DNA from: an uncultured bacterium
GTDB lineage: Bacteria > UBA8481
NCBI GenBank assembly: GCA_964499705.1
Contig: CAZCME010000014.1
Location: 1 to 64,000 of the forward strand
Length of the DNA: 64,000 nucleotides
Direction: 5' to 3'
The notes beneath the pieces are model-generated. The model did no database searches. It was not told the origin of the DNA and saw nothing but the letters and a program-made list of their open reading frames with translations. Of the stretch, positions 48,917 to 54,883 are shown piece by piece. Both the position numbers and the translations under genes were made by a program. The first letter of the stretch is position 1. Each line of letters begins with the position of its first letter.

Positions 48917-51154
48917 CTAGAATGAGAGGCGAGCGTATCCGACGTTGCCGTTCTGGTCTATCGCCTTGAAGATGATGGCGCGCGCCGTCGCGCCGTCGGA
49001 ACTCGCGGGTGAAGTCGGACGGACGACATGGAAGATTTCCTCGGACTGGTCGGCAATGCCGTCATCCGGAGACAAACGCTGCCAGACTCCGTCCTCGTCG
49101 TAGTACCAGATCGATTCGATCCGGCCCGTCGCATCCGTGGCTGATCCTGCCAGCTCCACCTTGCCGTCCGAAAGGAAATCCTTCACCTCCACCTTCACAA
49201 CCGGCGGCGTGTTGTCGACCGTGAAAATATCCGACGTCTGCGTCGCGGTTCGCTCGTTGCCGGCGTCGTTGTCCTTCTCGTCCGTCACGGTCACGACGGC
49301 GCTGTATCGGCCATCGGGAAAGTTATTCGTGTTCAGCAGGTATCCGTCGCCCTCGAATTCCTCCTCGATGAGAAGTCTTCGGGATGTTGCTTCGTCGATC
49401 ACCTCGATCCGGGCGGCCAGCTTGTCCAGATCGGGATCCTCCGCCATCCAGATCACGTGCACGAGCCCCGCGAAAGGTTGGAGCAGTTCCTCCATCGTGA
49501 ATTCCGTGAATCCCCTGGCGGCCTGCTGGGACGCGTTCTTCGCGGCCTGCGCGAAGGAATTGACGACCTGGCCGAGCGGACCTGAGCGGGAGAGGCGCGA
49601 CAGATTGCGTTGCTCGAAGGAGACAGGCTTCACGGATACGGATGAGACGCGCGGCGCGCGATTGGTCACCTGGTATGTGATGGAGAGTTCGCGCATGTAG
49701 TCGTTGTCCGATTCTCCGGAATGTCTCACTTCGAACTGCAGGTAGCGCGCGAGGGGACTTTCGATCCTCATCCCCGGCTCCTTGATCGGCAGGCTCCACG
49801 CCGACCACGTGTTGTTCGGCGTCTCCGCGTTGCCGCTTCTCGTTCTCACTTCCCATGGCCCCTTCGACTCGAAGGTCACGACTCCCCAGTCGCCCTGCGT
49901 CTTCGCGTCCAGCGCGTCCGACCTGAGGAATCCGCCGCGCTCCACGCGCCTGTATTCATGCAGCATCGCCGGCTTGCCGGTGCCGACGAAGCGATCGGTC
50001 AGGGAGAGCAGAAGCTTTTCATCGAGCGCGAGCATCAGCGAACTTTGCAACGGGCCGTCGATCCGGAAGACCTGTCCCATGTCGGAGTTGGCGACGAGGA
50101 GCCCGTGCCTGTTGAAGTTCATGGCGCGGATCGCGGTCCGCGCACGGACCCACTCCTCAACATGGCCTGACGCATCGATGCGGAAGATGGTGTTGCCGCC
50201 CTCGGGCTGAGGACGAGCCTGCGGACGCTCGGGCGGCGCTTCCTCCCCTTCTTCTTCTTCGCCTTCGCTCGGTGCGATCTCCGTGCGGGCCGGGCGCCTG
50301 CCGGACTGCGCCAATCCCATGAAGTAGACGTAGCCGTCCGGGCTCAAGGCAACATCGACGATCTCGTTCTGCGGCGGATCGTAGGCGATGGAGACGCGGG
50401 GCGAACGAGCTGTCAGCGCATCGACGGCCAGCAGGACGCCCTGCTGCCCCTGGGTTCCCGCGTAGATCCTGTTGCCCGATCGGGCCATGGAGAGAATATG
50501 CGGATCGTCCGCGCGGTAGATGAGCTCCATCTCGCCGCCGCTCGACGAAAAATTGCGCCGGCGGAAGATGCCGCCGCCGACGCCGGTCCTGCCGCTGCCC
50601 GTCACCAGCCACAGGTCGTCTTCGACCGGCAGGACGCGCCAGATATACGAATCGGAGATCGTCTCCGACCAGACGACCTGCAGAGCGGTCTCCGTGGGTT
50701 CGAGAATCAGGAGCGTCCCGACGGGAGAGACGCCGGCCGCGAGCTTGCCGTCGGGCAGGAGCGCGAGCGTGTACACTTCAAGCCCGTCGCCTTCCCACGC
50801 GACCTCGACGCCGGATTCCACACCGCCCTCCGCATTCTTGCGCGCGTACAGGATCTTCGCTCCGTCGCCCACGCCCATGTAGACGCGGTCGGCGGTCTCC
50901 ACGATCGACCAGACATAATCCGCGGGCACGGGGATGGATGAGGAGACGAGACCGTCCTTGATGCGGCCTTCCTGCGTGACTTCGAACCCGGAGATCTTGA
51001 ATTTCGCGAAGGCGGCGCGATCGGAGAATTCCCACCTCCCTGCCCGGACGGCGCCGGCGGGATTGGATGCGGCCAGCAGAAACAGCACGCCGGCGGCGGC
51101 GAGGACAAGCCTGTTGACGATATTAATCTTATGAATCCGGCCGTTATTCTTCAT
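48917..51154 (-). CDS. Secreted beta-propeller + Ig/FN3-like protein downstream of the S55 peptidase
   Basis: Signal peptide, propeller-like repeats, TRSGN..P...WSAWS, ARYLQF, VDNTPP. Confidence 0.7.
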   Translation of the reverse strand: MKNNGRIHKINIVNRLVLAAAGVLFLLAASNPAGAVRAGRWEFSDRAAFAKFKISGFEVTQEGRIKDGLVSSSIPVPADYVWSIVETADRVYMGVGDGAKILYARKNAEGGVESGVEVAWEGDGLEVYTLALLPDGKLAAGVSPVGTLLILEPTETALQVVWSETISDSYIWRVLPVEDDLWLVTGSGRTGVGGGIFRRRNFSSSGGEMELIYRADDPHILSMARSGNRIYAGTQGQQGVLLAVDALTARSPRVSIAYDPPQNEIVDVALSPDGYVYFMGLAQSGRRPARTEIAPSEGEEEEGEEAPPERPQARPQPEGGNTIFRIDASGHVEEWVRARTAIRAMNFNRHGLLVANSDMGQVFRIDGPLQSSLMLALDEKLLLSLTDRFVGTGKPAMLHEYRRVERGGFLRSDALDAKTQGDWGVVTFESKGPWEVRTRSGNAETPNNTWSAWSLPIKEPGMRIESPLARYLQFEVRHSGESDNDYMRELSITYQVTNRAPRVSSVSVKPVSFEQRNLSRLSRSGPLGQVVNSFAQAAKNASQQAARGFTEFTMEELLQPFAGLVHVIWMAEDPDLDKLAARIEVIDEATSRRLLIEEEFEGDGYLLNTNNFPDGRYSAVVTVTDEKDNDAGNERTATQTSDIFTVDNTPPVVKVEVKDFLSDGKVELAGSATDATGRIESIWYYDEDGVWQRLSPDDGIADQSEEIFHVVRPTSPASSDGATARAIIFKAIDQNGNVGYARLSF

Positions 51155-51178: not shown

Positions 51179-52831
51179 TCATTTCCTCCGAATCATGATC
51201 TGCGCATTGGCTCTTCCGAAAACGGTCGCGTCCATGGTCTCGGTCTGCGTGAAGCCGGTCGAAGCCCTGTCGAGCCCCGACTGGATCTTCCGCAGGGACG
51301 GCGGAAGCGCCGGGAGAATTCCGCCCTCCACCTCGAGATTCCGGCCGCCGTCGCCCAACCCGTACAGCACGAGCATGTTGCTCGGCTCGTACGATTCCAG
51401 GCGGTCCAGCAGGAGGTCCATGTTGACGGGTTCCGGGAGATCGGTGCGGCCCAGGCCGCGTCCGCCTCCGGCAGTGAGCGTCAGCAGCCCTTCCGGAAAG
51501 CCGGCGGGAACTGCGACCATCACGCGATGGATCCAGCGTCCCGCGTCATACGAGCGGAAGACCAGGTCCACGGGGACGATCTCCCCGGGTTCCGCGGCGG
51601 CGACGAGCGGTTTCATGCTGACGATCTCGTGCGATCGGCGGTCGTCGTTGAACGAGATATGGATGGCGACACTGTCGGGATGAATGCGCATGAAGGGATT
51701 GTCGTACAGGATTCTCAAGGGGACCGTTGGCATCATGTCGAGGATCGAACGCTCCACGACGCCCTTGTCCTTCAGGGTGACTTCGCGCCCGCCCACGACG
51801 AGCGAAACGGAAACCTCCGCGCCCGCCGGCCCCGCGGTGTAGGCTCCGGCTTCCGCCGCGGACGCCCAGGCGATGTCGAAGAGCACGTTCGTGATGGCGT
51901 CATCGCGACAGATCCGGAAGGAATAGCGGTTCGATCCCCACGGCGCGTCGATCGCGACGCTCATCGGAATCATCGCCGGGGCTTCGCCGAGGCTGCCGGA
52001 GATCCCGGGCTGCGCGTCGCGGAGAATCGCTCCGACGTCCTCCGATGCGGAACCCATCTTGAAGGAAATGTCCGCGGCGGGAAGAATCGTTTCGATGCGC
52101 GCGCCCGTCATCGGCATCCGCGAAAGGCCGCGGTTGAGGAACGGATGGCCGAAGGCGATGACGCCTGAATCGCGGACGTACGTGACGGTGCCGATGGCGG
52201 TAAGGGAGAGATCGCCGTCGACGAGCCGGACTCCGATCGCGGAACCGGGTTGCAGGCGGGCGCGGCCCGATGCGCGGCCGCCGGCGGCGGCCAGGTAGCC
52301 GAGCGATTCGACGCGGCGCCACGCTTCGCCCTTCCGGTCGGGCGAAAGACCGGCGACGGAAAGGGGAGCGGCGAGCGACCGCATGCCCCGGGGCGGATGA
52401 TCGGCCATCGGCATGCGGGTATCGGCGGCCTGCTCGGCGAGGAGCCGGACCATCAGCTTGATCGGCGTCACGCCCGCGATCGGATCCTTGGCGAACTGCC
52501 AGCCGTAGGCGAGCGCGCCGAGCAGCTTGCCGCGGAAATAGATCGGGGATCCGCTCATGCCCTGGATGATGCCGGACTTGTCGAACGGCTCGCCCACGAG
52601 CCGGATGAGGATCATGTCCTGGGTCACCATGGCGTTTTCGAGCCGTCCCACGAACGTGACGGGAAAGCGGATTACGGAGTCGCCGTACAGGACGGTAAGC
52701 CCGTAACCTGTTTCGCCGGGGACAAGAACGGAGGCGTCGATGAAATCGAGATCCTCGTCCGACGCGCGGGCGGAGGCTGAAAAGATGAAGAGGACGATAC
52801 AAGAGAGCGCGATCACACGCGATGCAAGCAT
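51179..52831 (-). CDS. SpoIVB-like peptidase (S55 domain)
   Basis: GIIQGMSGSPIY, AGVTPI, AFGHPF; signal peptide from ATG 52831 (alternative start 52888). Confidence 0.88.
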   Translation of the reverse strand: MLASRVIALSCIVLFIFSASARASDEDLDFIDASVLVPGETGYGLTVLYGDSVIRFPVTFVGRLENAMVTQDMILIRLVGEPFDKSGIIQGMSGSPIYFRGKLLGALAYGWQFAKDPIAGVTPIKLMVRLLAEQAADTRMPMADHPPRGMRSLAAPLSVAGLSPDRKGEAWRRVESLGYLAAAGGRASGRARLQPGSAIGVRLVDGDLSLTAIGTVTYVRDSGVIAFGHPFLNRGLSRMPMTGARIETILPAADISFKMGSASEDVGAILRDAQPGISGSLGEAPAMIPMSVAIDAPWGSNRYSFRICRDDAITNVLFDIAWASAAEAGAYTAGPAGAEVSVSLVVGGREVTLKDKGVVERSILDMMPTVPLRILYDNPFMRIHPDSVAIHISFNDDRRSHEIVSMKPLVAAAEPGEIVPVDLVFRSYDAGRWIHRVMVAVPAGFPEGLLTLTAGGGRGLGRTDLPEPVNMDLLLDRLESYEPSNMLVLYGLGDGGRNLEVEGGILPALPPSLRKIQSGLDRASTGFTQTETMDATVFGRANAQIMIRRK

Positions 52832-52914
52832 AAGGCTCCTGACATAAAAAAAGCGGCAGTCCTTGTTCCGCGTTTCATCGCAGAACAAGGCCGCCGCTTA
52901 TCGTAACAATCACT

Positions 52915-52989
52915 CGGGACTTTCGCAAGGAAAGCCCGGCCTGCGGACGCCGAAATCCCGGTCGAAACCGGGGAGTCGGCCCGCAGGTC
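52915..52989 (-). terminator. Structured 3' region of the histone-fold gene (long UUCG-capped stem plus second hairpin)
   Basis: GGCCTGCGG/CCGCAGGTC, GCCGA/TCGGC and CCCGGT-CGAA-ACCGGG nested pairs; CGGGACTTTC-GCAA-GGAAAGCCCG adjacent. Confidence 0.55.
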
Positions 52990-52991
52990 GA

Positions 52992-53195
52992 CTAAATATC
53001 CTGCGGTCTGATCGTCTGACGACCGTTGCCCTTCGCGCGACCGATTGCCGCGTTGATGAGACCGACGGCCGCAGCGTTTGCTGCGTCGACGAAGTCACCT
53101 GAAACGCGAACTCCGGCGCTACGCGCGATGTCCTTGATGCGGGACGCGAGGACCACCTGCACCGCAGGCTTACCTCCCTTTTTCGCTTTTGCCAT
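52992..53195 (-). CDS. Bacterial histone-fold protein (67 aa) with short Lys-rich N-terminal tail
   Basis: GGAGGTG RBS 9 nt before ATG. VLASRIKDIARSAGVRVSGDFVDA...AIGRAKGNGRQTIRPQDI fits the three-helix histone fold with L1 RVS and L2 R-x-T-I-x-x-x-D. Confidence 0.85.
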   Translation of the reverse strand: MAKAKKGGKPAVQVVLASRIKDIARSAGVRVSGDFVDAANAAAVGLINAAIGRAKGNGRQTIRPQDI

Positions 53196-53303
53196 TCTTC
53201 CACTCACCTCCCGTTGTCCAATTTAATTCCCAGAAGTACCGCTTCCCCCGCCGTCGTCGAATGACGCGGCGGGAACGCTCTGAAAATCACGGAAACAGGC
53301 CGG

Positions 53304-53332
53304 AAGCTACCGTAATAGCGCGTACGCGTCAA
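53304..53332 (-). promoter_or_regulatory. Putative sigma70 promoter of the histone-fold gene
   Basis: TTGACG (53327-32)-N17-TAGCTT (53304-09). Confidence 0.55.
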
Positions 53333-53359
53333 TCATTTATTCTCGATTTTTTTCCACCG

Positions 53360-54883
53360 CTATTGCCTCTGTGGAATAACCGCGCCCGTATCCGTGAGAA
53401 TGAGCTCGAAGCCGACGGGATTCCGGAGGCGTGATACGTACGTGATTCCGCCTCGTTCGAGCAGAGGAATTCCGATTTTTTCTCCCGCGCCGAGGACGAG
53501 GAGATAGTCCGCATGTTGCGGAATCGTGAAGCGGACCTTCTCGCTCGTCCACTTCGCGGCATGGCGATTCATCGCCGCGCGCCACATCGGATCGTAGAAG
53601 TTCAACGGCCGGTCGCAGGAGGCTCCGGGAATCACCGCGTACGATCCCTCCGGCAGTTCTCGAATCATATCGTGCGACAATATGTCGCCGGACGATGTTA
53701 TGGGAAGTTTCCATCGCGCCGCCGCGGCGGGTCCCCCGGCCAGTTCGCTGACGTAGAACGATTCCGCGGGGTGCTGGCGTATCAGCGAGAAGACGAAGGA
53801 GCCGGCGACGAGAACGATCACGAGCAGAAAGCGATAACCGCGCGCGCGCCACCCGGCCAGCCGGGCCGCACCGAGTCCTCCGGCCACGGCGACGACGACA
53901 GCCACCGGCAGAAGATGGCGGATCCCTTCTCTCAGGTAGGAGTGAAAGGCGATTGCGGAAAGAAGTCCTGTGGCGATGTGGATCCGCAGGAGCCTTGTGA
54001 GGGGACCGGCGCCCTTCCACAACTCGATTGCCGCGCCGAGCAGGAGCAGCGGGGGCAGGCCGATTGCGAGCCAGAGCGGAGCGTAGTACCAGGGAGGAGA
54101 ATCGACGAAGCCGAAGAAGAGCGTCGCGGGACGACGCGCGGCTTCGTCGGCCGCCGCGGGGAGCGCGGCGAAATGCGCGACATGATCGAGGACCGCGCGC
54201 GGATTCAGCGCGAGCGCCGGCCAGGCGCAGAGAAAGCCCGTGAAAAGCGCCAGCGCGAACAACAAGAAGGATCGCCGCGAGAAATTTCCGGACGGAGCGC
54301 ATCTCCAGGCCCAGACCGGCACGGCGATGATCCCGACCAGCGCGGTGATCTTCGTGCCGAGGGCCAGGCCCGCGATGAACCCGGCGACGAACCATTCGCG
54401 GGGCGCGCGGGCGCGCGAGGCGGTCGCCAGCAGGAGGAGCGTCAACGCGGAGACGACGGATTCGTTGGAGGCCTGAGCGGAGTAAGCGAAGAAGGGCGGC
54501 GCCAGGATCAGCGAGGCCAGCACCAGCACGCCCGCCGCCGGGCCTCGCGGCCGGCGGACGGCGCCGTACACCGCGATCGCCGCGAGGGCATAAAGCATCG
54601 CCGTAAAAATCCGGAGAGCGCGGAAATCGCGAACCGGGAGATATCCCAGGGCGCCGAGAATTTTCGCGGGAGAAGGATGCTCCGCGCCGAACCAGACTTC
54701 CTCCGTGTCCGCCGTTCCGCGGATCCAACCCGCCAGCTGGTGGGCGTCGTGGATGAAGCGCGCTTCGTCGAACGTCATGCCGTATCGCGAAATGTGGCCG
54801 AGAATAATCAGCAGCATCGGAATAAACAGAACCGCGGGGCGAATGCCCGCCGCTTGCTGACCTGTCGGCCCCGTGGCGCTCAT
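53360..54883 (-). CDS. GT-C membrane glycosyltransferase (ArnT/PMT-like)
   Basis: Start ATG 54883; TFDE after the first TM, EHPSPAK, GLALGTKIT, PPWYY, RHLLP; many TM segments. Confidence 0.8.
   Translation of the reverse strand: MSATGPTGQQAAGIRPAVLFIPMLLIILGHISRYGMTFDEARFIHDAHQLAGWIRGTADTEEVWFGAEHPSPAKILGALGYLPVRDFRALRIFTAMLYALAAIAVYGAVRRPRGPAAGVLVLASLILAPPFFAYSAQASNESVVSALTLLLLATASRARAPREWFVAGFIAGLALGTKITALVGIIAVPVWAWRCAPSGNFSRRSFLLFALALFTGFLCAWPALALNPRAVLDHVAHFAALPAAADEAARRPATLFFGFVDSPPWYYAPLWLAIGLPPLLLLGAAIELWKGAGPLTRLLRIHIATGLLSAIAFHSYLREGIRHLLPVAVVVAVAGGLGAARLAGWRARGYRFLLVIVLVAGSFVFSLIRQHPAESFYVSELAGGPAAAARWKLPITSSGDILSHDMIRELPEGSYAVIPGASCDRPLNFYDPMWRAAMNRHAAKWTSEKVRFTIPQHADYLLVLGAGEKIGIPLLERGGITYVSRLRNPVGFELILTDTGAVIPQRQ

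Follow-up and report, generated by a model that had tools for sequence, protein, structure and literature searches.

A short reading frame on the minus strand of the window, the term used here for the whole stretch of 64,000 nucleotides that was analysed, raises the question of which kind of histone it encodes, whether the lysine-rich segment at the start of its translation belongs to the protein, and whether that segment can be compared with the tail of eukaryotic histone H4. An earlier note on this DNA had described a 67-aa singlet histone with RVS and RQTIRPQD signatures and a tail AKAKKGGKPA, and all of these elements are present in the translated frame.

52992..53195, minus strand: histone gene, an open reading frame of 67 codons and a TAG stop

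According to the translation, the encoded sequence consists of MAKAKKGGKPAV, followed by a core carrying R30-V31-S32 and R59-Q-T-I-R-P-Q-D66, with the tail AKAKKGGKPA occupying residues 2-11. The gene likely encodes a small, nucleoid-associated, alpha3-truncated histone of the face-to-face (FtF) type, similar to HLp of Leptospira perolatii and HTkC of Thermococcus kodakarensis. Direct results of this analysis are the sequence together with its conservation, and the fold and tetramer interface as predicted; the mechanism proposed below is taken in part from HLp.

Fold, class and predicted assembly of the histone

The histone gene is a real gene. Searches at E ≤ 0.001 recovered 29 close homologues from a collection of 90%-identity clusters and 214 representatives at 50% identity, and the comparisons discussed below make use of these 29 close homologues and of 62 wider singlet relatives, which were also the source of the family profile. 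Over the 55 core codons compared, the differences from five related loci fall mainly at third codon positions, as in the comparison with locus L009 (5, 4 and 30 differences at the first, second and third positions; 24 synonymous and 7 nonsynonymous codons), and this pattern of conservation indicates that the predicted DNA-contact and tetramer residues are under strong purifying selection. The gene is present as a single copy in an assembly of 4.67 Mb that is 96% complete. The Pfam scan of the histone returned no family at E ≤ 10, Pfam DUF1931, the name given by the depositors to the HLp chains, produced no match above its gathering score, and NCBIfam yielded sub-threshold matches only.

The AlphaFold2 model (mean pLDDT 85.5) has the order helix-loop-helix-loop-short-helix, preceded by a disordered tail, with the following predicted elements.

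Residues 1-12: disordered Lys/Ala/Gly tail (mean pLDDT 52 over residues 1-10)
Residues 17-26: helix alpha1
Residues 27-32: loop L1
Residues 33-56: helix alpha2
Residues 57-63: loop L2
Residues 64-66: truncated helix alpha3, of three residues

An alpha3 of 3-4 residues and a shortened alpha2 characterize the alpha3-truncated histones, and both are found in this model; the chain stops at I67, a single residue past D66 of the RxTxxxxD motif. The nucleosomal class of archaea and eukaryotes, which possesses a full alpha3 of about ten residues through which the four-helix-bundle contact is made, was considered and rejected, given this early end of the chain and the 16.5 bits scored with the archaeal-histone model of NCBIfam, for which the cut-off is 50.

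Comparison with solved structures was carried out at the level of both sequence and shape. Among PDB sequences searched with phmmer, HLp (9qt0) was matched at E 3.5e-7, HTkC (9f2c) at 1.6e-4 and HBb, the Bd0055 protein of Bdellovibrio bacteriovorus (8cmp/8fvx), only weakly at 0.08-0.12. The profile of the 62 singlet relatives gave 2.1e-22, 5.1e-16 and 3.6e-14, respectively, and matched nucleosomal archaeal histones at 7e-5 to 6e-3 (HMfA at 6e-3), so that by these E-values the protein lies nearer the solved FtF histones than the other classes. The Foldseek comparison proposed in the earlier note placed HLp first (9qt0_A; rmsd 0.9 Å over 55 columns, 38% identity), followed by HTkC and then by HBb, whose structures occupy ranks 4-9 at 0.9-1.0 Å. 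On the basis of these sequence, profile, model and Foldseek comparisons, the protein is assigned to the alpha3-truncated histones as Schwab et al. 2024 define them (PMC11390915). The singlet histone fold of bacterial kind suggested earlier is therefore borne out by phmmer, the family profile and Foldseek; of the two bacteria then named as examples, Leptospira, through the FtF tetramer class of HLp, provides the nearer relative, Bd0055/HBb of Bdellovibrio being the more distant protein in the phmmer and profile searches.

The FtF category of Schwab et al. 2024 is described as a torus-shaped tetramer, with an HMM featuring R48, N52, R54, T56 and D61 and a conserved alpha1 lysine (PMC11390915), and all defining features of HTkC (PDB 9F2C) and of this category have counterparts here. 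In the phmmer alignment, R49, N53, R55 and D62 of HLp correspond to R53, N57, R59 and D66, and the RD clamp R55-D62 of HLp thus corresponds to R59-D66. The residues R53, N57, R59, T61 and D66 are invariant in 29 of 29 close homologues; among the 62 wider relatives T61 and D66 are again invariant, and conservation of R53, N57, R59 and K21 reaches 90% or more. The interface arginine and asparagine, the RxTxxxxD motif and the alpha1 lysine are thus all present here.

Oligomer modelling, another of the checks suggested earlier, gave a four-copy model with a score of 0.83, compared with 0.02 for the best of three controls. The mark that it passes was also attained by 20 of 30 proteins known from their structures as one-chain pairs and by 1 of 23 known as single chains, this calibration having been made with two copies and the histone being modelled as four. 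Contacts agree between runs to at least 98%, with partner pLDDT of at least 83, and the scored copy takes part in a handshake dimer and in a second interface at residues 52-53, 55-57, 59 and 65-66, the positions used by the HLp tetramer. A closed tetramer of two dimers with the HLp interface is thus confidently predicted; since the tetramers of HLp and HTkC had already been solved, the result expresses likeness, not independent proof, and may reflect those known structures.

It is quite improbable that the protein is instead a "bacterial dimer" histone of the HBb/Bd0055 kind, which would remain a dimer and bend DNA instead of wrapping it. HBb (PDB 8CMP, 8FVX; PMC11317129, PMC10627809), reported as a DNA-bending dimer, is also a singlet with an alpha3-truncated fold and an RxTxxxxD clamp, it stands among the top fold matches and is found by the profile at the E-value given above, and a truncated alpha3 is common to the bacterial dimer and FtF classes. 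In the phmmer alignment, however, R53 and N57 stand opposite S and D of HBb, and bacterial dimers are described in PMC11390915 as having neither the interface arginine nor the asparagine and as carrying RKTxxxD, whereas here R53 and N57 are invariant and the motif reads RQT. In addition, the profile E-value for HLp is lower than that for HBb by roughly 8 orders of magnitude, and the confident four-copy model is assembled through exactly the residues of the R53/N57 region.

The likeness to HLp (PDB 9QT0-9QT2) extends beyond the interface. HLp is also a singlet of ~65 aa with a truncated alpha3, and the N-terminus is short, basic and disordered in both proteins; in the HLp crystals, residues 1 to 6 or 7 are invisible (PMC12701072). 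The DNA-contact residues of HLp are given as A13, S14, K15, K17, K21, G29, T56 and T57 (PMC12701072); A17, S18, K21, G33 and T61 here are identical to residues of that set, and the HLp lysines K15 and K21 are replaced by R19 and R25, so that ASK at the helix end of HLp reads ASR and the alpha1 lysine is present in both. Three further positions differ, T27, S52 and T56 of HLp being V31, G56 and Q60.

In the mechanism proposed for the histone, two chains would form a handshake dimer, and two such dimers would meet face to face at R53, N57, R59 and residues 65-67 of the C-terminus. DNA could wrap non-specifically around the closed tetramer that results, as do ~60 bp in HLp. The contacts with DNA would be provided by the helix-end motif A17-S18-R19, by K21 and R25 of alpha1, by L1 (G33) and by L2 (Q60 and T61), to which the disordered lysine tail might add non-specific electrostatic contacts, and any role in organizing the nucleoid would likewise follow the example of HLp. 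For HLp, a stable tetramer in solution and the wrapping of DNA have been measured.

The N-terminal tail and the start of translation

Whether the tail is translated is a fair question, because the codons K6-G7-G8 form a ribosome-site-like sequence ahead of a GTG codon. The relevant features are as follows.

53212..53204, minus strand: Shine-Dalgarno sequence GGGAGGTGA, with its GGAGG core 11 nt from the ATG
53180..53172, minus strand: internal AAGGGAGGT, formed by the K6-G7-G8 codons, 10 nt before the GTG of V12
53162..53160, minus strand: GTG of V12, a possible secondary start leading to a tail-less 56-aa form, in this genome only

The start at the upstream ATG is conserved. All five species-level genomes of the lineage have ATG-GCA-AAR, with GGAGGTGA located 9-11 nt ahead of the ATG, and retain an in-frame, Lys/Ala-rich tail whose length changes by whole codons; in three of the five, an in-frame stop lies 0-1 codon upstream of the ATG. 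Among the 29 close homologues, 26 combine a MAK start with a tail whose net charge is at least +2. In four of four relatives, by comparison, position V12 is occupied by GTT or ATT, and the tail contains no GGAGG. It is because the ATG, GGAGGTGA, the in-frame stops and the MAK starts are conserved, and the V12 start is not, that the tail is concluded to be translated; a start downstream of the tail, named earlier as an observation that would overturn the proposal, did not emerge.

Translation from the GTG of V12 by way of the GGGAGG of the K-G-G codons, which would leave the tail outside the protein, is accordingly a very improbable reading, even with the 10-nt spacing of AAGGGAGGT in this genome and a homologue of 56 aa (P0008) that a gene finder called from the V12 position. 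This one genome might also yield a minor isoform that lacks the tail, produced beside the full-length histone.

The tail of the full-length histone contains four lysines within residues 3-9, and the earlier note had likened its KGGK to the tail of H4 and proposed tail conservation as a check. The tail sequence proved not to be conserved among the 29 close and 62 wider homologues. KGGK occurs in 5 of the 29 and 4 of the 62, the usual tail of the homologues being MAKAKKAAKA-like (AKKAAKA-like), and the tails of the 29 close homologues are 1 to 23 residues long with no position conserved past MAK, so that neither the conserved motif nor the fixed lysines expected of an H4-like tail are found in these sets. 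The scarcity of KGGK in homologues indicates that the resemblance to H4 is a chance product of low complexity, and this part of the earlier proposal is not upheld. In eukaryotic H4, too, the histone fold is preceded by an N-terminal tail that is basic and disordered and contains glycine; the H4 tail is nevertheless composed of Gly/Lys/Arg, compared with Lys/Ala here, the KGGK match covers four residues and lacks conservation in the family, and the H4 chains in the Foldseek list superpose poorly (rmsd 3-9 Å, E 0.03-0.1).

Acetylated lysines are known from bacterial nucleoid proteins generally, and the present tail is translated, disordered and lysine-rich. A regulatory platform of the H4 kind, with KGGK lysines that are reversibly acetylated, is nonetheless very improbable in view of the motif counts and variable lengths just given, and no acetyltransferase or deacetylase gene is present among the 9 neighbouring genes scanned. 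The tail agrees better with the description of bacterial FtF histones in PMC11390915, according to which positively charged tails are common and share no conserved sequence; archaeal FtF histones are described there as mostly lacking tails, in contrast to the tailed protein encoded here.

Signals for expression around the gene

The claim that the gene possesses its own ribosome site is substantiated by the presence of GGGAGGTGA and by the conservation of the 8-nt Shine-Dalgarno sequence GGAGGTGA in all five species, and GGAGGTGA is also present upstream of the gene in the more distant locus L016. Across the genome, GGAGGTGA occurs 205 times, and only 34 of these sites stand ahead of the start codon of an ORF with at least 60 aa; as these 34 ORFs are mixed, some of them doubtful, the rarity of the motif is concluded from this count, and not its value as a marker of high expression. 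The 3' end of 16S rRNA, sought for its anti-Shine-Dalgarno sequence, was not found in this assembly.

The remaining signals, identified from the five-species alignment and from the sequence downstream of the gene, are located as follows.

53304..53332, minus strand: promoter-like element
53332..53327, minus strand: -35 hexamer TTGACG, followed by a 17-nt spacer
53309..53304, minus strand: -10-like hexamer TAGCTT, of the TAGnTT type
53281..53296, minus strand: direct repeat GTTTCC-N4-TTTTCA, directly 3' of the -10-like hexamer
52846..52897, minus strand: intrinsic terminator (hairpin and U run) between the histone and the next gene
52897..52853, minus strand: long G+C-rich hairpin of the terminator
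52852..52846, minus strand: seven U following the hairpin

A promoter of its own, as formerly suggested for the gene, is supported in the form of this promoter-like element, which would place the transcription start near 53297. A scan of 52500-53700 for consensus sigma-70 promoters returned 0 promoter-like sites; the alignment nevertheless shows TTGAC(G/T)-N17-TA(G/C)nTT in 5/5 species, as well as in L014 and L015, which belong to the same species as L010, with an A/T-rich tract immediately upstream. This pattern has 3 occurrences in the 4.67-Mb genome.

The direct repeat, in the form GTTTCn-N4-TTTTCA, is likewise conserved in 5/5 species and may be an operator or other protein-binding site or a part of the initial transcribed region. 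A genome-wide search for the repeat gave 8 strict matches and no regulon, the other seven not looking like promoter regions in their sequence context. The consensus fold of the histone leader over the five species contains no conserved RNA structure (-0.92 kcal/mol). An insertion of ~25 nt in the leader, with a hairpin CCCGCCG...CGGCGGG at 53247-53273 on the minus strand, is absent from four related genomes.

Downstream of the gene, the stretch 52840-52995 folds at -83.3 kcal/mol with a z score of -7.18, none of 200 shuffles being as stable, and a hairpin followed by a T-run lies 3' of the stop codon in 4/4 relatives. Rfam yielded only sub-threshold chance matches, which fall on the terminator. 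The 3' untranslated region between stop and terminator (52898-52991, minus strand) contains two more stable hairpins, the z score of -7.18 referring to the whole 156 nt, and in the relatives the terminator is situated much nearer the stop than in this window.

Sequences related to the gene also appear in RNA libraries. Libraries X15 and X16, from two studies, contain 3 contigs of 151-234 nt which match only 52994-53212, with 90-99% likeness, and which correspond to the histone coding sequence of relatives with 17 nt of leader; these contigs have loose ends, possibly represent library DNA and are unusable for ranking expression, so they are not taken as a sign of transcription or abundance. Habitat labels of runs with a low share were likewise left aside. 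The DNA runs X1 and X4 covered the flanks as well.

Genomic context and proposed role

The histone is present in 5/5 genomes examined from its phylum-level group, two of which carry the NCBI label Candidatus Hydrogenedentota/Hydrogenedentes. In 4/4 relatives, genes for GT4, PMT_2 glycosyltransferase, histone and S55-like peptidase follow one another in this order, and a 745-aa protein beyond the peptidase is matched in 3 relatives, the sequence of L011 ending inside the peptidase gene. The conserved signals, the gene order and the presence in all five genomes characterize the gene as an old, vertically inherited single-gene unit at a fixed place, which would be expressed from its own promoter-like element with a strong ribosome site and its own terminator. 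The neighbouring genes, encoding glycosyltransferases and the peptidase, give no suggestion of a link to chromosome biology.

Two details of the neighbourhood may be added. The 745-aa protein (48917-51154, minus strand) has no Pfam match at E ≤ 1e-5 and shares 38-43% identity with its counterparts in the 3 relatives. The longest ORF of the S55-like peptidase (51179-52888, minus strand) begins at a TTG within the histone terminator, and the true start is likely the ATG at 52831, which has AGGAG 5 nt upstream.

The genome also contains two HU/IHF-family genes, at C24:17597-17863 (minus strand) and C10:92390-92659 (plus strand), which score 108 and 86 bits against PF00216. Because these genes coexist with it, the histone need not be the main chromatin protein of the cell, "major" remaining an inference, and it may be one architectural protein among several. 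Leptospira, by comparison, is reported to have neither HU nor Dps (PMC12701072). The host of HLp belongs to a different phylum-level lineage, and its histone neighbourhood comprises SMC, MAP and DUF350 genes, whereas the PMT_2 glycosyltransferase and S55-like peptidase flank the gene here.

A protein with the FtF fold that is a low-abundance or condition-specific accessory, or that has a role outside the nucleoid, leaving the bulk of the work to HU/IHF, is an unlikely alternative, to which the two HU/IHF genes lend some weight. FtF histones are described as not always highly expressed, HTkC lying 34-fold below HTkA, and not every histone-fold protein need be a global organiser (PMC11390915). 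Against this reading stand the DNA-contact and tetramer residues, conserved under strong purifying selection, the 8-nt Shine-Dalgarno sequence, promoter-like element and dedicated terminator, all conserved in 5/5 species, and the occurrence of the gene as a single copy throughout the five lineage genomes.

A more elaborate proposal builds on the nucleoid-associated FtF histone: acting alongside HU/IHF, the histone might have its dosage controlled through the repeat as an operator, by itself or by a growth-phase regulator, and its tail tuned by acetylation or, in this one genome, by the internal start with its tail-less isoform. This combination is improbable; if true, it would represent a simple and regulated form of bacterial chromatin with two states.

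With respect to earlier work, the FtF class, its tetramer, the wrapping of DNA and the presence of tails are already in print (PMC11390915, PMC12701072), the main bacterial holders of FtF histones being given as Spirochaetota, Planctomycetota, Bdellovibrionota and Myxococcota (PMC11390915). A literature search, in which some matches were judged by title and abstract, found no paper linking Hydrogenedentota/Hydrogenedentes with histones. The lineage is unmentioned in the main texts of PMC11390915 and PMC12701072, the supplementary distribution figures lying outside this check, and "Hydrogenedent" is absent from a supplement of PMC11390915 that lists only UniProt accessions and categories, the homologues considered here having no UniProt accession. 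The result thus adds a small, uncultured, mostly groundwater-associated lineage to the bacteria with tetramer-type histones and is a modest widening of their known phyletic range. It also offers a case in which histone and HU coexist, which could help in studying the division of labour between them. Present knowledge of bacterial histones and of their tails is unchanged, and the link to the eukaryotic H4 tail fails.

Two further groups of sequences were encountered in the course of these searches. The first is an orphan protein of 166-187 aa (L012:1360-1923; region of contig C3:48013-48147), the middle of which matches the FtF profile weakly (E 3e-4). It has no RxTxxxxD motif, its N-terminus is acidic and its C-terminus is rich in K/R/S, and one other homologue is known; it has no Pfam or PDB match, and its low-confidence single-sequence model (pLDDT 53.9) displays a helix-loop-helix pattern. 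The second group comprises the nearest representatives outside the histone's own family, which are tandem doublets of ~120-175 aa with two alpha3-histone units per chain (P0031-P0047 and others). Several of these doublets (P0032, P0036 and P0040 were examined) carry hydrophobic, signal-peptide-like N-terminal leaders, which is odd for a DNA-binding protein.
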